Shown here: piece after piece, positions 1 through 13,878 of the stretch
How positions within the stretch are numbered: position 1 is the first letter of the stretch
Layout of the letters: each line of letters opens with the position of its first letter
DNA from: Dictyostelium discoideum
Lineage: Eukaryota
Length of the DNA stretch: 64,000 bases
Reading direction: 5' to 3'
Assembly: GCA_000004695.1 (NCBI GenBank)
Contig: CM000154.2
Coordinates: 4,096,001 to 4,160,000 of the forward strand
The notes under the pieces: generated by a model
Seen by the model: the letters and a program-made list of their open reading frames with translations, nothing else
The model's database searches: none
What the model was told of the DNA's origin: nothing
Position numbers and translations under genes: made by a program

Positions 1-227
1 TAAATAAAAAATATCCAGAATTCTCCCGCCAATTTTATTTTTTTTTTATTTTTTTATTTTTAAATAAAATTCTTTTTTGTTAATTTTTTTTTTTTTTTTT
101 AATTTCAATTATATGAAATTTCATTTCAGGTACGGTATTATATTTATTTTTTTTTTAATGGTTTTTTTATTAATATTTTTTTTTTTTTTTAATAATCAAA
201 ATATTTAATAAATTTAAAAACATGCAG

Positions 228-3036
228 GTGTATGGGAAGCATTAGAAGATAGTGGTATTGATCCGATTAGTTTACGTGGTACAAATACAAGTACATTTAT
301 TGGTAGCAGTACTACTGATTATGGTAGTCTTCAAAAATCACCATTTGAAACTCAAAATAATATCTTTGGTTCTTCAAATCATTCAGTTGCGAATAGAATC
401 GGTTATAACTTTGACTTTAGGTATGATTTATTACAATATTAATAGGATTAATTATAATTTTAAATATCGTCATCAATATTAATATTAAAATTTACTAACA
501 TTAACTTTTTTATATTTAAAAATAAAGAGGTGAGAATTTTACAATTGATTCAGCTTGCTCCAGTTCTTTAAATGCAATTAATTGTGGATACAATTCAATC
601 AAATCAAATAAATCAAATGTATCAGTTGTTGGTGGTGTTAATTTTATATTAGGTATGTAATGTTGTGATTAACAATATAATAATAATTATAAAAAAAAAA
701 AAGTAAATGAATTATATATATTAATCAATATATTATTTTTATATTTTCAGACCCACATGTTTCAAAATCATTCACACAATTGAATATGTTAAGTCCAACT
801 GGTAAATGTCATTCTTTTTCATCGGATGCTGATGGTTTTGTTCGTTCAGAAGGTGTTGGAATAGTCATATTAAAGAAACTAAAAGATGCAATTAAAGATT
901 CAAATAATATCTATTGTGTAATCAAAGGTTCAAGTTCAAATGTGGACGGAAACTATGATAAATTAAACTTTTATTCACCATCAAAATCATCTCAATATGA
1001 AAATATGAAATTAGCAATCAAATCAACCAATGGTCAAATCAATGAATCTGATATTGATTATTGTGAAGCTCATGGTACTGGTACTCCAACTGGTGATCCA
1101 ATTGAATTAGAAGGTATTTCAAGACTTTTCGATCAAAATAACAATAACAAGAAACAAGTTTTAGTTGGCTCAATCAAATCAAACATTGGACACACTGAAG
1201 GTAAATCAATTAATTAAATTTTCTTAATCATAATCAATAATCAATAATTAATTACTAACATTACTCATTTATTTTTAATTATAATATCATAATTAATCAG
1301 CATGTTCTGGAGTTGCATCATTAATTAAATGTTGTATAATGTTTAAGAATAAACTATTTCTTCAAAATATTAATTTCAAAGAATCAAATCCATTAATAAA
1401 TTTCAAAGAATGGGCATTAAAAGTCGTAACTGAACCAATTACCTTCAATGAAAATAAAACCACTGTCATGTTAATTAATAATTTTGGTGTTACTGGTAAA
1501 TATTGATTTATCACTTTATAATTTATGTGTATGATAAAAAAATTGAAATTAATTTTATTATTATTATTATCACTAGGTTCAAATGTTTGTTTAATATTAT
1601 CAGAATTTAAAGATAAACGTTATAGTAATGATGAAAGCAGTAGTGATAATTTTTGTGAGCAAATTGATATTGATAGTAAAGCAAATGAAAAAAAGAAATT
1701 TTTAATACCACTCTCAAGTAATTCATCAACATCATTAGATAATTATAAATCCATAATAGTCAATAATAATGATGATGATTCGAATTCATCAACAAGAAGT
1801 TTTCAAGAATTTGTTTATAATCAAATCAAATTCAAATCAACATCATTAATTCAAAAATCAGTTATAATTGCAAGTGATTGGAATGAATTTCAAGATGATG
1901 ATAATCAAATAAAGTTGAAAAATAGTGAAAGTTTAATTTCAAATATTACTGTTGAAAAAAAGAAATCACCACTCACAGTAATAGTATTTTGTGGCCAAGG
2001 TTCACAATATAATAGAATGGCATTATCACTATACGAGAATGAACCAATATTCAGAGAATCAGTGAATAGATTCGATAAAGAGTTATTCAAGTATTATGGT
2101 TATTCAGTTTTAGATAGATTAAGATCAGTCAGTGATAAAGATGAAATATCAATCCATCTACCAATTTTAGCACAACCAGCAAATATAATGATTCAAATAT
2201 CACTCTATGAACTATATAAACATTGGGGTGTTTCAGCAGATATCATCGTTGGTCATTCTCTTGGTGAATTATCATCATCCTATTCATCAGGTATGATCGA
2301 TTTTGAAACATTGTGTCACTTAATCTATCATAGATCATTGGCTCAAAACAAAACTACAGGTACAGGTAGAGCGCTTTCAGTCAATATTAGCTATGATGAA
2401 TTTATTGAGAGATATCAATCCAAAAACAATAAATACGAAACACTTGAAATTGCATGTTACAATTCACCAACATCAATCGTTATTGCAGGTAAAGAAGATC
2501 TATTAAATGAAATTTCAAAAGAATTTAAATCAAATGATATCTTTTGTGCAATGTTAGGATCATTATCATCATTTCACACATCAAGTCAACTTATGATAAA
2601 AGATGAAGTATGCTCATTGGTATTTAAATCAAAACTACCATCAGTACCAGTATTTTCAACAGTTACAACCAATTTATTCAATGATCAAACACCATATAAT
2701 GCCAATTATGTATGGGAGAATATTCGCCAACCAGTATCATTCACACAGACCATCAGCAATCTTTACAAACATATCGAGTCTAATGATATGGGTAATGAAA
2801 TTACATTCATTGAAGTTGCACCACATCCAACATTACAATTTTACTTGAATCAAATGAAATCAACTCAATCAAGTTACTTTAATAATGGCAAAAGCGTTAC
2901 AATCTATTCACCATTACATAAAAAGAAGAATGATTATAATGAATTTTTAAAGACAATCTCTTTATTATATGTTAATAATAATTTTAACATTAATTTTAAA
3001 TCACAATTAACTAACATCAATAATAATAATAATAAT

Positions 3037-3117
<81 letters not shown>

Positions 3118-6100
3118 ATAATCCAATTTAATATTAATAGCTTGCCACTTTATCAATGGGATGATAATGAATACTTTAAATTAAATCCATTTCATGAAAA
3201 GATTACAAATGAAGGCCCATCCATTCAAAACCTTGGTAATGGTATTGATTCAGCATGTCCAACATATCAAACATTTATTGATATCAAGAAACCACCATTT
3301 CAATGGTTAAAAGGTCATCAAGTCAGTGATAAATTTTACTATCCTGGAATGGGTTATGTTCAAAATCTATTATCAATTTATCCAAATCAAGATATAACAA
3401 TTAGCTCATTAGAATTTAAATCACCATTAGTATTAACAGAAGGTAATAATCAATGTTTAGAAACTACAGTTTCTCTCCTCTCAAAGAATGAATTCAACGT
3501 TAAAAGTCATTACAAAGATCAAAAAACAAATCAATGGATATTATCATCACTTGGTAATTTTAGTTTATTCAAACATAACAGTATCAATAGTGAAAAATTA
3601 ATTAACATTCAAGCATTAAAAGATAAATGTAATTTTACGACAATATCAAAACATGATTTTTATGAATCCATTAAAATCAAAACAAATTTAACATATAAAG
3701 GTTTATTTCAAGGTGTAAAAGAATGCTCAATTGGTAATAATTGTTCACTCGCTGTAGTATCATTAAATGAAATCAATAATCATACAATTAGTAATCATAG
3801 TACTATTGGTCGTTCATTATTTAATGCTGCAACTTTAGATTCTTGTTTACATGGTTCATTAATTGCAGTTGCACAACCAGTTGTACTCGATAGAATTGAA
3901 GGTTTCAAATTATACTCTTCAAATATTCCATTATCATCATCTTTGAGCAAAGATGACAATGATAATAGTAATAATAGTTTAATTAAAGAATTATATATTT
4001 TTACTGAAGAAAAAGCAAGAACTAATTATCAATCGTTTTCAGCATCAGTTAAAATCATTCTTCCAAATGGTAGATTATTAATGGAGATCTCAAGGGTGGT
4101 TTGTTCATCAGTTTCACTTGCAAATCCAAGCAATACTATAATTTGTAAACCACCTTCAAATGAAATTTATACACCATATCTTCAACCAAAAGATTCAATC
4201 ATCAACAAACCTCAACAATTCAAACATTTATATAGTGTAGATGAATTTATTGCCAAAGAAGAAGATAATCAAATCATTTCAACTGAATTGTTATTATCAT
4301 TATTTTATAAACATATCAACGTTAGATGTCCAACTATAAATTTAGAATCATTAACAACATTAGAATATAATCAATTTAAACAACTATATTATAACAACAA
4401 TGGTTTAGTAAATGAAAATCTTTTCAAATTCGTTTTTGAAATCTTAAAGAGTTATAGTAGTAGTAATCATTATATTCTTAATCATCATAACAACAGTGAA
4501 AACAAAAACAAAAACAACAACAACAACAACAACAGCAACAACAATGAAAATAGTAATAATGAATCACCAATACATTTTGAAAAATTATACAACTTGTATA
4601 CTAAAACAACTAAAATAATAGCAAAACAAATATTCCCATTAAAAGATGATTCATTTACAGATACACCACAATCATTATTCGAAAATGGATTTTTAGATGA
4701 TTTTTATAAGAATTCAAGAGTAGTTCAACCATTAAATAACTTATTAAGTGAAATTATAATTGAAGCACTCAAACCAATTTTAAATCAACCAATTGTATTT
4801 CGTATATTAGAAGCAGGTGGTGGTACTGGTAGTCTTAGTTTATTAATTTTAGAAAAGATTTGTAAACTTTTAAATGCAAATCCAAACTCAGTCATTGATA
4901 TCGAATTCACATGGAGTGATGTATCATCTTCATTTTCAGCAGAGATTAAAGAGAAGTTTTCACCATTTACAGCTCACAAAAATTTCAATATTATCCACCG
5001 TGTATTAGATTTAGAGAAACCATTATTTGATCAAGACTTTAAAACATCCTATTATGATCTCGTTGTAATGTCAAATGTAATGCATGTCGTTAAGAAACTT
5101 AAACCAACATTGGATGAAATTCATAATATATTGACACCAAATGGTCAACTGCTATTTGTTGAACCACCTTATAAATCAATTAATTATGATTCAGTTTTTT
5201 GTTGCTTTTCACAATGGTGGCCATCTTCTGATAGTGATACCGAGTTAAGACCTGATAGAAGTTGTATGAATCAAGATAAATGGATTAAAATTTTAAATGA
5301 AACAAACTATAGAGATACAATTATATCTGGTAATGACAATTTAATATTTTTAATTCAAACAAGAAAACCATCAATTAATGAAATCATTTCAAAGCAATCA
5401 TCAGATTCATCATTGGATCAATTTAATTCTTTCAATAATATCATTTTATTTGGTAATAATAATTATGGTTGTAGCCTTCAAAATTCAATATCATCAAATC
5501 AAGAATTAAAAAGTAAAACGATTAATATTAATAATTTTAATGAATTTCAAACATGGATTGCAAATAATTATGATAATAGTGATGATTTTGACAATAATAA
5601 AACATTAATAATATTTTTAAAGTCAATTGAACCAATTAATATTTCAAATTTCAAAGAAATAACCTATGAATATATTCAAATCAATCAATTAATATTAAAG
5701 TTAGAATTAACAAATAATTTCAAACATTTATTAATATCATTGGATTCAACAACTGATAATTATTTATCATCATCAATTATTGGTGCAGCACGTTATTTCG
5801 TTGAGTATCCACAATTAGATTTATATATTTTAAACTATGACATAATTTCTTTGAAAATTTTAAATAATAATAGCAGTAGCAGTTGTAATAGTAGTAATGG
5901 TAGTATTAGTAGTTGTAGTTGCAAGCAACAACAATTATCATTAATCAACTATTTAATCAATACAAATAATAATATTCAAAAAGAATTTACAATTAATAAT
6001 AATAAAGTATACTATGAAAGATATACTAGACATTCAAATAAAATTAAATGTAATTTACAATCAAAATCATTTGAAACAAATAAAGATAATTTATTGATTC

Positions 6101-8349
6101 AATTAGATTCAAATTTAGAATATCAATTATATAGTAAAAGAGTTGAACCAAACTCAAAAGAAGTAGAGATCGAAATTAAAGCAACAGGTATAAACTATAA
6201 AGATTATTTAATGCATATTGGTATGGTTAGCAGTGATTTAGATTTAAAGTATGGTAAAGAATATGAAGTTGAAAATTGTATTGGTATTGAAAATCCTATG
6301 ATTGGTAACGATTTTAGTGGTATTATTACAAGATTAGGTAGTGATGCAGAAAAAAAGAAATTTAAAGTGGGTGATCATGTTTGTGGTGTCGCATCAAAAA
6401 CAAGTGGTTCTCATGTGGTCATAGATTATAATTTTATTTATCATCAACCTTTAAATTATAATCATTCAATTTCAGCATCAATTCCATCGATATACGTTAC
6501 ATCATTACATAGTATCTATGGTGTTGGTAATTTAAAATCAAATGAATCCATTTTAATTCACTCAGCAGCAGGTGGTATTGGTATTTCATCTTTAGATTTA
6601 TTAAAATGCAAAAAACATCAAGGTCATATATTTTTAACAGTTGGTTCAAAAGATAAAGAAGATTATTTAAAAAAGAACTATGGATCATTTATTACTGCTA
6701 TCTATTCATCTCGTAATAAAGACTATGTCAATGAAATAAAGAATAAATTAATTGAATTAGGAGAAGTCAAACAACAAGGTGTAGATTTAATATTAAACAC
6801 ACTATCATCAGAATTTATGGATTCAAATTTCCAATGTTTAAATATGTCAGGACGTATCGTTGATTTAAGTGTTACTCATCTCACACCAAATGACTATATT
6901 GCCAATAATCATTTCAAATATAATATGGGTTACAATAATGTTGAAATGATTGATTTCAATGGTAAAATGGTCAGAAGTTATTTAAAGAAAATTATCAAAA
7001 TGATCAATTCAAACAAATTAGAGTTAAGTATACCAATCATTGAATATTCAAATAATCAGTTCAAAGATGCAATCGAATATATTAATCAAAGAAAACATAT
7101 CGGTAAAATTATCGTAAATCATAATCAAGATGAGTTTAATAGAGTTTATAATAATTATCAACAAAACAATAATAATAATAATCAAATTATAATGAAACAT
7201 TCATATGATATATCAAAATTAAATATGGGCAAAAATATTTTACTCACTGGTCAAACTGGTATCATTTTAGAAATAATGAAATACTTGATTAGATATTCAA
7301 ATCACTCAATTCAGAATATTATAATACTTTCAAAATCAAAATTAAAATGGGAATTAGAGTTATTAATTAATCAAACTAAATTTATCAAAGATAATATCAT
7401 TAAATTCCATTTTATTCAAATCGATATTGAAGATTCAAATAAAGTCAATCAAGTATTGAATCAATTAGAACTAAATGAGAATATTACGAATATCGATTCA
7501 ATCATTCATTTTGCATTTAATAATGATATTGGTGATGTTCAAGATGTTAATATGAATCGTTTAAATATTGCTCATGGTGCAAAAACAATTGGAGCCATTA
7601 ATCTTCACAATGAATCAATTAATCGTTCATGGAAAATTAAACAATTTATAATTGCATCTTCAGTGTCATCAATATTTGGTTCAGATCAACAATGTTGTTA
7701 TGTTAGTGCTTGTAGCGTTATAGATTCATTATCAAAGTATAGACATTCACTTGGATTACCATCTTTAGCAATTAATTTAGGTACTGTAGCTTCAACTGGA
7801 TTTATATCACGTAATAATGCAATTGAAACCATGTTTAAAAGTTCATTCTTAAAATTATTCTCACCACAACTCGTTATTAGTTCATTAGATTTATTCATTC
7901 AAAATCAACGTCAATATCCAAATTATAGTTTAGTAGATTTCAATTTTGAAGTTATGTTAACTTCACCAAATTACCATCTTTATAAACTTGATTATGAAAT
8001 TAATATTTTCAAAAAATCATATCAAATCAATACCAATTCCAGTAGTGGTAGTGGTAGTGATAATGAATTCATTCATTCAACAATTTTAAACAAAATCAGT
8101 GAATTACTATCAATTGACGAATCTAAAATTAATGAAGATTTACAACTTACACAATATGGTATGGACAGTTTAGTAATAGTACAATTAAAGAATTTTATCG
8201 ATAATCAATTAGGTCATAATCTCATTACAATTCATCAACTACAACATAATAAAATCAATCAATCAATTGATATTATTAAATTTGGTTATCTAATTAATAA
8301 AAACAAATTCAAATACAAAAATAATAATAAAAATAATAATAATGGATAA
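228..8349 (+). CDS. Type I iterative highly reducing polyketide synthase, 5'-partial (KS-AT-DH-cMT-ER-KR-ACP); exons 228..420, 528..652, 751..1200, 1301..1495, 1577..8349
   Basis: The KS frame carries no Met, so the ORF track misses exons 1-4. KS motifs seen: [20 protein letters not shown] (Cys codon 556-558), [16 protein letters not shown]. Introns have GTATGA/GTATGT/GTAAAT donors and AG acceptors that keep the frame continuous (phases 2, 1, 1, 1). Later domains: AT GHSLGE at 2251-2268; [16 protein letters not shown] near 3310; SAM methyltransferase [10 protein letters not shown] at 4807-4836; [12 protein letters not shown] near 6560; KR Rossmann [12 protein letters not shown] near 7240; [14 protein letters not shown] near 8155. 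A poly-Asn tract (3037-3117) is encoded in frame. The N-terminal part of KS lies upstream of the window or in an unresolved intron. Confidence 0.9.
3037..3117 (+). repeat. (AAT)n coding microsatellite (poly-Asn) inside the PKS AT-DH linker
   Basis: About 27 uninterrupted AAT codons. Confidence 0.95.
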
Positions 8350-8574
8350 TTATTTATTTTTAAAAACTAAAGTAATATAATAAATAGAAAAAATAAAAAA
8401 ATTCCTAAAATTTATTGTTTAATAAATCTACCAAAATCCATGTATCAATATGTATGCATATTTTTTGTTGTGTTGAATAAAAAAAAAGAAAAAAAAAAAT
8501 AAAAATAAATATTAGAAACACTAAAATTGAAAAAATAAATTAAAAAGATCTTAAAAAAAAATTTTTATCCACCT

Positions 8575-9012
8575 TATTAATCAGCATGTTCTGGAGTTGC
8601 ATCATTAATTAAATGTTGTTTAATGTTTAAGAATAAACTATTTCTTCAAAATATTAATTTCAAAGAACCAAATCCATTAATAAATTTCAAAGAATGGGCA
8701 TTAAAAGTCGTAACTGAACCAATTACCTTCAATGAAAATAAAACCACTGTCATGTTAATTAATAATTTTGGTGTTACTGGTAATTTTAATATATCATTTT
8801 ATTTTCTTTACAATACCATTTATTATCTATATATAAACTAATATATTTAATATTATCAATTAAAGTTCAAATGTTTGTTTAGTATTATCAGAATTTAAAG
8901 ATAAATGTTTTAAAAACGATGAAAGCAGTGATAATGCTTGTGATCAAATGGATATTGATAGTAAAACAAATGAAAAAAAGAAATTTTTAATACCGCTCTC
9001 ATGTAATTCCCT
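8575..9012 (+). pseudogene. Relic partial duplicate of the PKS (end-of-KS exon + intron + start of linker exon), truncated by a stop
   Basis: 8578-8786 nearly matches 1293-1496, including the acceptor 'ttaatcag' and the donor GT. 8861-9010 nearly matches 1577-1730. The intron between them has diverged. The copy reads ...[53 protein letters not shown]. There are no flanking KS or AT exons. Confidence 0.6.
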
Positions 9013-9827
9013 GCAACAAACATCGTAGAAAATTATAAATCATTAGTAATAATAATAATAATTATAATATTAATATTGTTATGTTACGTTAAAATATGGT
9101 TTATTAATATTAATTTAAGTATAGAATCATTAGTAAGAGTATGGAATAATTTGGAATATATTAATACTAATCAATCAAAGGCTTGTCAAATCGAATTCTT
9201 GGATATTTTAATTAATAGAAATATTTCAGTAAATGATTCAACTGATTTCTTTTTAAAAGTATTCAATTCAACATCTTTCAAATCAAATAACAACAACAAC
9301 AACAACAATAATAAAAACAATAATAATAGCAATATATATGAAATCAATGCTATATTAAAATTTTAATATGAATATAAAATTTCAAGTCATTTGAAAACTT
9401 CACCTACAAAAACTGATAATTATTCATTAACTCCTTATTTCAGATCTTGTTGTGAACATTGTGAAGAAATAAATAATTTTTTAGCGAATCCCTCGATTAT
9501 AAACTTTTACTGTGAGATTCAAGATTCAAATAAAAGAAGACATCTTTTAAGAGATTTAAAGATAGGTGAAAGTTCTGATATTATTTCTTATAAAACTAAA
9601 ATAAAAAATAATATAACATTATATTTCAAAAAGAATTGAACGCAAACATTCAGAAAATTATAAAAAAAATGTTGGAAAAATTAAATCACTCTATGATCTT
9701 ACAAAATCATTTCCAATATTCAATAATACAAAAGCAATTGAATATCTTAAAAAACAACTTATAAAATTAAATTAAAAAAATAAATAAGTACTCTCAATAC
9801 ATTTTAAAAATATTTATATTTATTTTT

Positions 9828-10882
9828 TTATTTACATTTATTTTTTAAAACTAAATTATCCCATGATTTTTTTGTTTGTGGTAAAAGATAAAATGATCTA
9901 ATTTGATTTAATGATATAATTACTTCTTCACAAGATGGTCTATTTAATGGTGATTGATCAACACATTGTTTATAAAGTTTTTCTAATGGTTCTGGACAAA
10001 TATTTGGTAATGATGGTCTTAACCCATTTTTAGAAGATAATAATAATTGAAAATCATTTTTTATATCTTTGAATTCACTGAATGGATGGGAATACTCTCC
10101 ATTTATAATTCTACTAATTAATTCAAACATTATAATACCAAATGAATAAATGTCAGATTTACTTGTAATTGATGATGATAAACTAGTATAGTCATCATCA
10201 ATATCTTGAAAATCACTTGATTCTGGTGAACAAAATGCAAATGATTTATTTTGATTATTACTATTGATATATTCAGTATTTAAACAATTGAATCTACTTG
10301 CACTAAAATTTGATATTTTACATTCCCAATCCTCATTTACCAATATATTCAAAGAGGTAACATCTCTATGAACAATTGGTTTGGGTTTTCTATTATGTAA
10401 TGATTGTAAACCCAATATGATTTGCATTGAAAATTGAAAGAAACGATTCCAACCTATCTCTATCAATCTATCAGTCATTATATGATATAAAGAATCACGA
10501 CTACAAAATTCAGTAATTATACAATAACATTGTTTTTGAGGTTCTTCAACTATTGATACGCCATAAAATGAAATTAAAAATGGTGATGATCTTAATGATT
10601 GCATCATTAAAAATTCAGTTTTAAATTCTTCGAATCTAATTGGTGAAAAAACTTTAATTGCAACTGGTTTACCATTTAATCTACCCTTATAAACTCTACA
10701 TAATGATCCAGATCCTAATCTACAAACATATTCAATTTGTTTATTATTAATATCCCATAATTTAAAATTTACAATTGATTCTTTAATCAAATTAAAATTA
10801 ATTTCATTTTCATCATTATTATTACTATTATTATTATTATTAAAACTATTATTTAAACCACTAATATTATTAATTACAATTT

Positions 10883-10886
<4 letters not shown>
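9828..10886 (-). CDS. Protein kinase (TKL/tyrosine-kinase-like family), single exon
   Basis: Gly-loop LGSGSLCRVYKG, VAIK lysine, catalytic loop HRDVTSLNILV, DIYSFGIIMFEL in the C-lobe. ATG at 10886 is preceded on the coding strand by a long poly(A) promoter tract. Confidence 0.85.
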
Positions 10887-10913
<27 letters not shown>

Positions 10914-11606
10914 CTAAAAATTGATTTATTATATATTTTTAAAAAATTAACTAACTGCAATATTATTGATTTTTTGATATTTTTATTTAATATTTTGGTT
11001 TTAAAAAAAAAAAATATTTTAAATAATCAAAAAAAAAAAAAATAAAAAAAAAAATAAAAAATTATTAAATAAAAAATTATTAAATAAAAATAGTGTGAAT
11101 GATTACCATTTTTTTAAATTGATTAATTAAATTATTGTAAAAATAGATAACCTAATTATATCACAATGACTGTTGTGATTAATTTAATATAATTAAATCA
11201 AAACATTATTTTTTTTTTCAAGTTTTACCACACAAACACACATTCGACATAAAAAAAAAAAAAAAAATAAAAATATAAAAATAAAAATTCAAAAAAAAAA
11301 AAATACCCACCACGACCAATCAAACCAAACACTTTTATTTTAATAACCCATCACGAAATAAATGTAATCACCAACTCTAACAACCACTCTACAAAAAAAT
11401 TGTTATTACTGTCCCTAAAACCCACTTAACTTTTATTATTATAAATAAAAATAAAAAATTCAAACAACAATAAAAAAAAAAAAAAAAAACAATTAAAAAA
11501 ATAAATAAATAAATAAATAAAAAAAAATAAAAAAATAAAATAAATAAAATAAAAAACATTTATTATTGTTTGAAAATAATTAAAACTGTTTTTATTATTG
11601 TTATTA

Positions 11607-13574
11607 TTATAAAATTTTAAACTGAATTGGTTTTAAAGTACCAAATTTTGTTTTTTGTAAATTTAAATCATTATCTAAATGAATTAAATCATCAAAAGAT
11701 TGACCATAAAGACCAGGTAATTCATTTTGAAGAAAAGTTAAAATATTTTCAAAAGAATCTAATAATGGGAAATCGATAGTTTGATATTCTAATAAATCTT
11801 TTCTTGTGATGATTGTTGGATCATTTAAAATTTGATTATGTTTTTCCAATGAGATTTGATTGATTTCTTTTGCATGTTTATAGAGTATTTCCTTTTGATC
11901 ACAACGAGGTATATGTTCGCAGAGTTGATAACAAATTGAATTGAAACCTCTTAATGAATACTTTAATAATCTACTATAGGAATGAGTTAACGTTTTAATT
12001 GATATTAAATTTGTACGAGTTTTCAAAGCCCTTAATGATCTTTCATGTAAATAAACATTATCACCATCGTAACATAATGATATACAATCAATATCATGAA
12101 ATAGAATTTGTTGTTCAATAGTTTTAGTTATAATAATAATCAATTGAATTATTCTTGTTCTTTTATTTTCATTATTATTACTATTATTATTTATTGAATA
12201 AACTATACTAATTGAATTTGGAGTTCTAACAAATCTATAATCACAATTATCATAACCATATGTTGAATGTAAATTTTCAATAATTTTTGAAGATACTTGT
12301 TTTAATTTTTTATTTGCATCTTCTAAAGAGTTTGAAATGATTGAGATATCAATATCAGACCTATAGTATGGTGAATCTAATGATTGTTGTTTATCATTGA
12401 TTGACCTTATGAATGAATAATCATCATGTACTAATCTTGTAATTCTCTTTAAAAGATATTTTGGTAATGGTAATTTAAAAATTAATCTTTCAATTCTTTT
12501 CATCTCTATATAATCTTTAACTAATTTTATACCATCACCTGGGAATGTTTCTAAACATGATAATATACAACCACCATAAACTACAACTTTTGTATAATTT
12601 TCATTATTATTATCATTATTATCATCATCACCACTATAACTACCCCAATCAATACCATCTAATAAATCAAAAGTAAACATTGAAAATGATTTTTTAAATA
12701 TTTCAATATTTGGTACTATTGAATTATAACCTATTCTATAATTTTCATACCATCTACTTTTAACACTATATATGAATGGATGTGAGAATGATTCATATTC
12801 ATCAATAACATCAAATTTAAAATTATAATCTTTTGATAGTTGACCATCTTTTTCATTATAAACTTTAATAATTCTACTATCTTCTTTATTAATATCAATA
12901 CCTAATAATTTAATTTCGTCATCTTCATTATTACTATTCTTCTTATTATTATTATTATTATTATAATAATTTGAAAGTTCTCTCCTTCTTAACATTTCAC
13001 AACCATTAAAAATTGAATTATCTATTGATTCTTTCAACCATTGCAATATTTCATATGAGTTATTATTAATATTACTATCATCATCATCATTATTATTATT
13101 ATTATTATCATTATTATTATTATTAATTATATCTAAAACTTCATTACTGTTTAATGATTTTATTATTTTTTTAATGAAATTTTCATTATTTAAATAAATT
13201 AAAAATAATTTAAAAGATTCTTTAACTTTTTGTTTTAAATTTTTTGTTGTTATTATTTCTTTATTTCCTTTTGTTGTTAATATTGGTGGTGTTGGTGTTG
13301 TTGTTGTTGTTGTTTTTGTTGGTGATGTTGTTGTTATATTAAAAAATATTAAATTAAAACAGTTTATTAAATTTATTATGAAATATAATGTGAAATTATA
13401 TGATTCTATTTCATTTTTATTGATAATTTTAGATTTAAAATCATCTGATAAAAATTTACAAAAATATTTATGGTCAATTGTATCTTGTTCACTATTATTA
13501 TCAATTTCGCATTGTTGAATATAAATTTGATATTTTATATCACTATCTAATTTTGAAATATTAATTATCATATT
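11607..13574 (-). CDS. Hypothetical protein with Asn-rich and poly-Thr low-complexity segments and a globular C-terminal half
   Basis: Long ORF on the minus strand. The first ATG of the track ORF (13655) reads through the poly-T promoter as poly-Phe. The likely start is the MIINISKLDSD methionine near 13574. I recognised no family. It contains YGGCILS...GDG and SDIDISI motifs. Confidence 0.55.
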   Translation of the reverse strand, partial: NMIINISKLDSDIKYQIYIQQCEIDNNSEQDTIDHKYFCKFLSDDFKSKIINKNEIESYNFTLYFIINLINCFNLIFFNITTTSPTKTTTTTTPTPPILTTKGNKEIITTKNLKQKVKESFKLFLIYLNNENFIKKIIKSLNSNEVLDIINNNNNDNNNNNNDDDDSNINNNSYEILQWLKESIDNSIFNGCEMLRRRELSNYYNNNNNNKKNSNNEDDEIKLLGIDINKEDSRIIKVYNEKDGQLSKDYNFKFDVIDEYESFSHPFIYSVKSRWYENYRIGYNSIVPNIEIFKKSFSMFTFDLLDGIDWGSYSGDDDNNDNNNENYTKVVVYGGCILSCLETFPGDGIKLVKDYIEMKRIERLIFKLPLPKYLLKRITRLVHDDYSFIRSINDKQQSLDSPYYRSDIDISIISNSLEDANKKLKQVSSKIIENLHSTYGYDNCDYRFVRTPNSISIVYSINNNSNNNENKRTRIIQLIIIITKTIEQQILFHDIDCISLCYDGDNVYLHERSLRALKTRTNLISIKTLTHSYSRLLKYSLRGFNSICYQLCEHIPRCDQKEILYKHAKEINQISLEKHNQILNDPTIITRKDLLEYQTIDFPLLDSFENILTFLQNELPGLYGQSFDDLIHLDNDLNLQKTKFGTLKPIQFKIL

Positions 13575-13821
13575 TGAAAAAAAAAAATAAAAAATAAAAA
13601 ATAAAAAAAAAAAATAAAAAATAAAAAATAAAAAAAAAAAAAAATTCCATGCCAAAAAAAAGATATTTTTTAACTATTTTATTTTTTATTTTTATTTTCC
13701 ATAAATACTAATAATTTATTTAACAAAACAATTTAAAATAATTATTAATTGTTTAATTATTAACTATTTGACCAACATATAATTTAGTTCAATAATAACA
13801 TAAATGGAGCAAACACAATAA

Positions 13822-13878
<57 letters not shown>

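Follow-up and report, generated by a model that had tools for sequence, protein, structure and literature searches.

Immediately downstream of a polyketide synthase (PKS) gene on chromosome 5 of Dictyostelium discoideum AX4 lies a short stretch of DNA that repeats part of that gene. What is this stretch, and how did it come to lie there? We addressed these questions in a window of 64,000 nucleotides (contig CM000154.2, positions 4,096,001 to 4,160,000 of the forward strand), to whose first letter all coordinates refer unless another locus is named. The gene that was copied, the part of it that recurs and the nearest conserved neighbor are as follows.

228–8349, plus strand: type I PKS gene, intact-looking by its splice sites and translation, with KS-AT-DH-MT-ER-KR-ACP
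228–420, 528–652, 751–1200, 1301–1495 and 1577–8349, plus strand: exons of this PKS in the window, from splice sites and translation
1292–1779, plus strand: parent segment, made up of the last 9 nt of an intron, exon 1301–1495, the 81-nt intron 1496–1576 and the first ~200 nt of the large exon
9828–10886, minus strand: TKL-group protein kinase DDB_G0290471, a conserved neighbor that serves as the anchor for orthologous loci

The parent PKS ends with a TAA stop codon at 8347–8349 and begins outside the window. Its preceding exon (…IDPQQRLLLKC/gtaaga), read in the assembly GCA_054883475.1 (locus L002), ends 29 nt ahead of the window start; with this exon found and the splice sites in place, the PKS looks intact. 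Furthermore, a dN/dS of ~0.23 against other strains indicates purifying selection. The intron that spans the window start (−28 to 227) is ~256 nt long, exceeds the other four PKS introns (81–107 nt) two- to threefold and contains long poly-T runs. The parent segment encodes the end of the KS and the start of the KS-AT linker, and it was also picked up in the repeat search, as families D8, D12 and D13.

A blastn search of 8400–9400 against the whole window aligned 8576–9068 with 1292–1779 on the same strand, with 432 of 503 columns identical (86%) and an E value of 1e-161. This bears out the original prediction, made from the letters of this DNA, that a relic copy of a PKS exon, intron and exon sits just past the PKS stop. 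No other non-trivial match to 8400–9400 was found within the 64-kb window, the remaining hits being poly-A or AAT low complexity. The copy begins 226 nt beyond the PKS stop and 7.3 kb downstream of the parent segment. It had been placed at 8575–9012; the match starts at 8576, and the end was set too early, since homology runs to ~9050–9068. The parts of the copy and its flanks are given below.

8350–8575, no strand assigned: A/T-rich spacer, of which 8350–8401 aligns to other strains and 8402–8575 has no detectable homolog
8576–8783, plus strand: high-identity block, with a 9-nt intron tail, acceptor cag at 8582–8584, pseudo-exon D′ at 8585–8779 and donor gtaa
8784–8864, plus strand: strongly diverged pseudo-intron, in which the copy has 13 substitutions of its own and 15 gap columns, the parent one private change
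8865–9050, plus strand: pseudo-exon E′, corresponding to the start of the large PKS exon; 12 substitutions are private to the copy over 148 nt, 3 nt are deleted, 5 nt are inserted near 9011, and TAG stands at 9026–9028
9040–9076, no strand assigned: right junction between PKS-derived and geneX-derived DNA (see below), within a tract of A/T only, (AAT)n/AATATTA, that contains a short palindrome (9061–9082)

The two exonic blocks of the copy have fared differently. The first, which pairs 1292–1499 with 8576–8783, is identical at 206 of 208 positions and matches the expectation of a copy that is almost base for base. The second, which pairs 1577–1724 with 8865–9009, does not, being only ~88–91% identical with a 3-nt deletion; its codon changes comprise nine nonsynonymous and three synonymous substitutions. 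The splice signals were also thought to have been kept. Those of D′ are intact (acceptor cag/CA at 8582–8585, donor G/gtaa at 8779/8780), but frame analysis shows that the in-frame acceptor of E′ has mutated from AG to AA at 8863–8864. The intervening intron has diverged as described, with 81 nt in the parent and 85 nt in the copy (8780–8864) and an alignment that holds at its ends only. Finally, the copy does not end in a stop codon. The TAG at 9026–9028 comes into frame through the 5-nt insertion near 9011, and homology to the parent continues beyond it.

The copy spans ~120 of the more than 2,600 codons of the PKS, and with these lesions it cannot encode the parental product. It starts after …SNIGHTE, downstream of all the KS catalytic residues (Cys-His-His). 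Over window positions 1–11000, which include the copy, the independent chromosome-scale assembly GCA_054883475.1 is 100% identical. Judged from its sequence, the copy belongs among the non-processed pseudogenes that duplicate part of a gene; it is joined to what is left of another gene and is non-functional as a PKS.

A relic would be an incorrect description if the region belonged to an expressed, spliced downstream gene. The AX4 annotation does place 8623–9024 in a three-exon gene; the model itself, however, is built on non-parental splice sites around the lesions.

8623–8753, 8866–9024 and 9120–9366, plus strand: exons of AX4 gene model B0G171 (XP_001733034.1), ‘beta-ketoacyl synthase family protein’, 178 aa, placed by mapping the protein back

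B0G171, which a protein search with the translated copy had returned, starts at an internal Met of D′ and quits D′ 26 nt early at the non-parental donor at/gttaat, which allows the use of a shifted AG at 8864–8865. It then skips the TAG through a second non-consensus donor, tc/gtagaa, and draws its final exon from downstream non-PKS sequence. Its protein has no Pfam domain at cut-off; the best match, KAsynt_C_assoc, scores 15.2 bits where 33 are required, and neither PF00109 nor PF02801 is found. With no gathering-score domain and no catalytic residue, B0G171 does not qualify as a ketoacyl-synthase family member. In GCA_054883475.1, the annotated PKS model (2,902 aa, L002 11248–21059) instead runs through the copy to window position 9639. 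Because the region is a separate model in AX4 and an extension of the PKS elsewhere, the gene call over it is unstable. The annotation of ACTFIZ, one of the genomes compared below, likewise extends the PKS model (2,844 aa, L005 11162–21068) through the downstream pseudogene region, and an 82-aa protein entry (P0140) matches the ORF at 9391–9639. A literature search by the identifiers B0G171, DDB_G0290471 and XP_001733034 found no paper. From its composition, B0G171 is almost certainly a chimeric pseudogene in which the PKS fragment is joined to the 3′ part of a decaying orphan gene.

We compared the orthologous loci of six further genomes, with the kinase as the anchor: D. discoideum ACTFIR and ACTFIW, ‘D. 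cf. discoideum’ ACTFIY and ACTFIZ, D. citrinum and D. dimigraforme. These six assemblies appear to be those of PMC12745789. The PKS is present at the locus in five of the six and is missing in D. dimigraforme; it was therefore acquired in the discoideum/citrinum clade, or else D. dimigraforme lost it. In the interval from the PKS stop to the kinase, the five PKS-carrying genomes hold no trace of a second PKS copy and D. dimigraforme holds nothing of the kind, the copy matching the parental PKS position only. Among the seven genomes compared, the copy is found in the AX4 lineage only.

Several of these loci show peculiarities of their own. In D. dimigraforme (L007 11336–15406), there is neither PKS nor geneX, and the kinase is separated by a zf-TRAF gene from a 695-aa gene, which in ACTFIY borders the PKS on the side away from the kinase. 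The PKS of ACTFIY has an internal deletion of ~970 bp (equivalent to window 4083–5050) and is annotated as two genes (1,291 and 946 aa); from this lesion, it is probably inactivated. Large triplet expansions are specific to single strains: in ACTFIZ, the PKS intron equivalent to window 1496–1576 contains an (ATT)n run that exceeds 100 nt, and in ACTFIW, the PKS C-terminus (L008 reverse complement 7956–8216) contains ~70 Asn codons in a run, where AX4 has only a few.

The DNA that adjoins the copy on its right belongs to a different gene, here called geneX.

9077–9772, plus strand: 3′ remnant of geneX, codons ~245–468, by blastn (86–92% to ACTFIW and ACTFIR) and by tblastn of the 468-aa ORF of ACTFIW

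Only one of the seven genomes, ACTFIW, carries geneX as an uninterrupted ORF, of 468 codons (L008:11099–12505, minus strand), to which AX4 9077–9772 has 82–89% amino-acid identity. The gene has no Pfam hit and only three hits among 1.84 billion representative proteins, and is therefore a lineage-restricted orphan; no homolog was found at the D. dimigraforme locus, in the rest of the window or in the paralogous PKS cluster L001 described below. In AX4, 675 bp (8402–9076) correspond to 1,005 bp in ACTFIR, 1,219 bp in ACTFIW and 774 bp in ACTFIZ that hold the 5′ region of geneX. Homology to AX4 restarts at 9077 in ACTFIR and ACTFIW and at 9074 in ACTFIZ. Given the intact ORF of ACTFIW and the presence of the 5′ part in three genomes, intact geneX is the ancestral state. 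In the AX4 lineage, the PKS fragment occupies the exact place of the geneX promoter and 5′ half (first ~240 codons). What remains in AX4 has an extra in-frame TAA (9364–9366) and a frameshift near 9618–9623, and ends 56 nt from the end of the convergent kinase gene. The gene has been damaged independently at least five times: by the replacement of its 5′ half in AX4, by a 5′ truncation of its own in ACTFIR, by frameshifts in ACTFIZ and by complete loss in ACTFIY and in D. citrinum.

The Dictyostelium PKS family is known for rapid, lineage-specific turnover (PMC3188802), and the expectation that its genes occur in arrays with decaying copies was confirmed on the same chromosome. Locus L001 (GCA_054883475.1 CM142511.1, ~4.58 Mb) contains a truncated PKS pseudogene (9693–13847) between two full-length PKS genes. 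This pseudogene is without its first exons, has an internal deletion of ~3.3 kb (window equivalent 3934–7257) and is annotated as three separate small genes, which encode 168, 718 and 229 aa. Positions 9941–10002 of L001 hold an inverted KS fragment of 62 nt.

How, then, was the copy made? Since it retains both the intron and the tail of the upstream intron, it was copied from DNA and not through an RNA intermediate. A retrocopy (processed pseudogene) is ruled out on these grounds and by the lack of flanking direct repeats. Transposon capture is ruled out as well. There are no TIR and no TSD at the copy, its flanks match nothing in the window but poly-A, and no tRNA gene lies nearby; TRE elements target tRNA genes. 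The source of the copy can also be named. Its E′ carries a linker block that is found only in the AX4, ACTFIR and ACTFIW alleles of this same PKS, so the adjacent PKS, and not a distant paralog, was its source; the copy is 86% identical to the adjacent gene and 80–83% to the one paralogous cluster compared (L001).

The reading that we favor, with moderate confidence, is that a partial DNA copy replaced the 5′ half of geneX in the AX4 lineage, then decayed and had its D′ block converted. In this lineage, that of the NC4-derived laboratory strains, ~0.49 kb of the adjacent PKS, from 9 nt ahead of the exon to ~200 nt into the large exon, would have been copied as DNA in direct orientation to a point 226 nt past the PKS stop, where the fragment would supplant the geneX promoter together with the first ~240 codons. 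The partial copying and the replacement would have taken place where the rearrangement-prone, A/T-rich spacer had broken, either as a templated insertion or as a short duplication plus deletion. The resulting chimera of PKS fragment and geneX tail would then have decayed through point mutations, indels, loss of the acceptor and premature stops. Later still, the D′ block would have been homogenized with its parent by gene conversion, which would account for its lack of private changes and for the AX4-specific AAA to ACC change that the two share; the conversion tract would have been bounded by the non-homologous left flank and by the already diverged intron.

Two routes fit the structure of the locus: one break-repair event that combines deletion with templated copying, or a tandem duplication of 7.3 kb and then a deletion of ~8 kb. 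The junctions do not separate them because both lie in A/T-only sequence. At the right, the tract at 9040–9076 prevents exact placement of the breakpoint. At the left, the 174 bp at 8402–8575 have no homolog in the other strains, in the window or in L001, poly-A aside, and the spacer between PKS and copy is not alignable between any two strains compared; the breakpoint can therefore be placed only to 8402–8576. We prefer the shorter route because no intermediate is found in any genome compared, while the longer one keeps substantial probability because the cluster 360 kb away holds a half-eroded tandem PKS.

The longer route leads to the interpretation of the original prediction, a tandem PKS duplication, collapse or unequal crossover. 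In its fuller form, the whole PKS, or 7.3 kb between 1292 and the 3′ spacer, would have been duplicated before geneX, and one or two deletions would have left 0.49 kb and removed the 5′ half of geneX. The left junction (8575/8576), which joins the 3′ spacer to the intron tail, does look like a tandem-duplication junction, and L001 9693–13847 is such a decaying tandem copy. The conserved exon, diverged intron and variable linker also mimic divergence under selection in a once-functional copy. However, two or three events are needed where a single complex event could suffice, and no intermediate is seen in any other genome compared. A duplicate starting at 1292 would have been without a promoter and without the KS active-site exons and thus never under selection, whereas a full-length one would require two separate recent deletions. 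The changes in the second block look neutral (nine nonsynonymous to three synonymous, with the acceptor lost and a frameshift). Nor does the copy qualify as the remnant of a complete tandem PKS: the 64-kb window contains one extra PKS-like segment and the locus none in the six other genomes. The notion of a full second PKS is thus unsupported, with no trace of it in the five PKS-carrying genomes and with the copy abutting an unrelated truncated gene. It had been proposed to look for such a gene upstream. In AX4, the 173 nt that were read beyond the window start hold no second PKS, only the upstream exon of the PKS itself, and in ACTFIY the gene upstream of the PKS is the 695-aa gene, which is not a PKS and is orthologous to the D. 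dimigraforme gene. Taken together, we consider an eroded tandem duplicate unlikely, though its probability is not negligible.

The divergence between copy and parent is not uniform. We polarized the differences between the two by the alleles of the other strains.

D′ block, 204 columns: none private to the copy, 2 private to the parent, 2 shared and derived (adjacent CC, AAA to ACC, Lys to Thr)
Intron, 81 columns (15 with gaps): 13 private to the copy, 1 private to the parent, none shared and derived
E′, 148 columns: 12 plus a 3-nt deletion private to the copy, 3 private to the parent, none shared and derived

D′ is thus a tract of lower divergence, as gene conversion produces, with private substitutions at 0 of 204 columns compared to 12 of 148 in E′ (Fisher p = 2.3e-5). 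Both parent-private changes in the D′ block are nonsynonymous and derived in the parent, the copy keeping the ancestral base. Codon 1441–1443 of the AX4 PKS is Thr (ACC), whereas Lys (AAA) is found at this place in each of the eight other orthologs and paralogs examined, and the double substitution (CC at 1442–1443) is common only to the AX4 PKS and the copy (8725–8727).

This mosaic bears directly on the age of the copy. It had been argued that near-identical exons next to a diverged intron date the duplication, but only D′ is near-identical (0/204), and E′ has 12 changes in 148 columns plus indels. With two apparent ages in one copy, no simple date can be read from it. The PKS dS between AX4 and ACTFIR/ACTFIW is 0.12, or ~0.06 per lineage, and the private divergence of E′ is 8%, compared to a neutral per-lineage value of ~6%. 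From this similarity, we infer that the copy arose at about the time AX4 split from these other D. discoideum isolates, which fits its absence there. The D′ block looks much younger, and its likeliest history is a later gene conversion with the parent exon, in either direction. The case for conversion is drawn entirely from the mosaic pattern, as seen in one carrier haplotype (AX4 and the identical second assembly).

The identical block ends sharply where exon meets intron, a pattern that also resembles the outcome of purifying selection on a functional copy. Had the copy been under selection for most of its history, the probability of zero synonymous changes would be about 0.03–0.07, which is only mildly low. 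Exon D, the parent of D′, is unusually conserved even between strains (97–99%). Selection on D′ as part of B0G171 was nevertheless judged unlikely, since even with all nonsynonymous sites constrained the synonymous changes would also need to be removed (P about 0.03–0.07). A further candidate, error-prone repair synthesis that would have loaded the right half with mutations, was rejected because a divergence of 8–20% is too high; to our knowledge, it far exceeds any known polymerase error rate.

The mosaic might instead reflect pre-existing allelic divergence. The copy would then stem from a divergent allele, through an unequal or illegitimate exchange between misaligned homologs in a heterozygous zygote. 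The PKS alleles of other strains differ from that of AX4 in much the same manner (exon D 97–99% identical, intron largely unalignable, linker 70–94% identical), most D. discoideum-clade strains compared are 7–9% diverged in the region, and mating between such diverged strains has been reported (PMC12745789). However, the first block carries the AX4-specific AAA to ACC change, seen in no other allele or paralog examined, so that its source was AX4-like. The second block carries clear pseudogene lesions, and no sampled allele is closer to the intron and second block of the copy than the AX4, ACTFIR and ACTFIW parents are. An origin from a divergent allele therefore appears improbable to us. Alternatively, an unsampled, very recent AX4 paralog of the PKS may have been the donor of the intron and second block.

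If the D′ block was indeed converted, as our preferred reading of partial copy, replacement and decay would have it, a more speculative scenario comes into view, to which we give little weight: the dead copy could be an active exchange partner of the PKS. Recurrent conversion would then keep the 204-nt block identical, and at least one unusual KS change (Lys to Thr) would have been born in the pseudogene and pasted into the gene. If true, this would amount to pseudogene-templated diversification of a natural-product enzyme.

It is harder still to see the region as a genuine young chimeric gene, in which B0G171 is transcribed and spliced as annotated to yield a 178-aa protein or a regulatory RNA. 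In the RNA form, it could act as antisense or siRNA against the PKS via the 204-nt identical block. The AX4 annotation does contain an ORF-preserving three-exon model, the first block shows no decay, and with the convergent kinase 56 nt from the geneX remnant, antisense read-through is conceivable. On the other hand, the model requires two non-parental, non-consensus donors, it is merged into the PKS in the annotation of the second assembly, and none of its domains passes the cut-off. Furthermore, four other lineages are losing its partner geneX independently of one another, and no literature or expression record was found for its identifiers. We regard a functional gene here as very unlikely. 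An assembly artefact or collapsed repeat, suggested only by the general difficulty of assembling A/T-rich Dictyostelium DNA, can be dismissed with near certainty, since the same structure is present in the AX4 reference and in the independent assembly GCA_054883475.1, and the copy has its own private substitutions.

The copy resembles several known systems and departs from each. Like other non-processed partial pseudogenes, it is a DNA-level copy in cis of part of a gene that retains the parental intron and splice signals and carries disabling lesions; unlike them, it is fused to an unrelated truncated gene, is annotated as protein-coding and diverges from its parent as a mosaic and not uniformly. 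With the decaying tandem PKS copy in L001, it shares the gene family, the orientation and a truncated state downstream of an intact PKS. That copy, however, spans KS to ACP (~4 kb in three pieces), whereas the one described here measures 0.49 kb, has no other PKS remnant around it and is absent from the other genomes compared. Human CYP21A2 and CYP21A1P are an example of gene conversion between a gene and its pseudogene. A short near-identical tract inside a diverged cis pair, and a nonsynonymous double change common only to gene and pseudogene, are features that our locus has in common with that type; here, conversion is read from one haplotype and no recurrent events are documented. Templated insertion by replicative template switching (FoSTeS/MMBIR-type) would similarly fill a target deletion with a direct-orientation copy from 7.3 kb away, with low-complexity junctions and an extra 174-bp stretch. 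In contrast to that class, no microhomology is demonstrable in A/T-only junctions, and the event is old (~8% decay), so its original junctions are blurred.

The main value of these results lies in the annotation and the correct reading of the locus; they reveal no new element or mechanism. B0G171 should not be counted among the Dictyostelium PKS or KS proteins, and the extension of the PKS through the copy region in the second assembly is a wrong annotation. More generally, mosaic divergence within a gene-pseudogene pair can mislead simple duplication dating. For the PKS family itself, the locus is a small, well-resolved example of the fast turnover around Dictyostelium PKS genes, in which one orphan gene has suffered five independent lesions.
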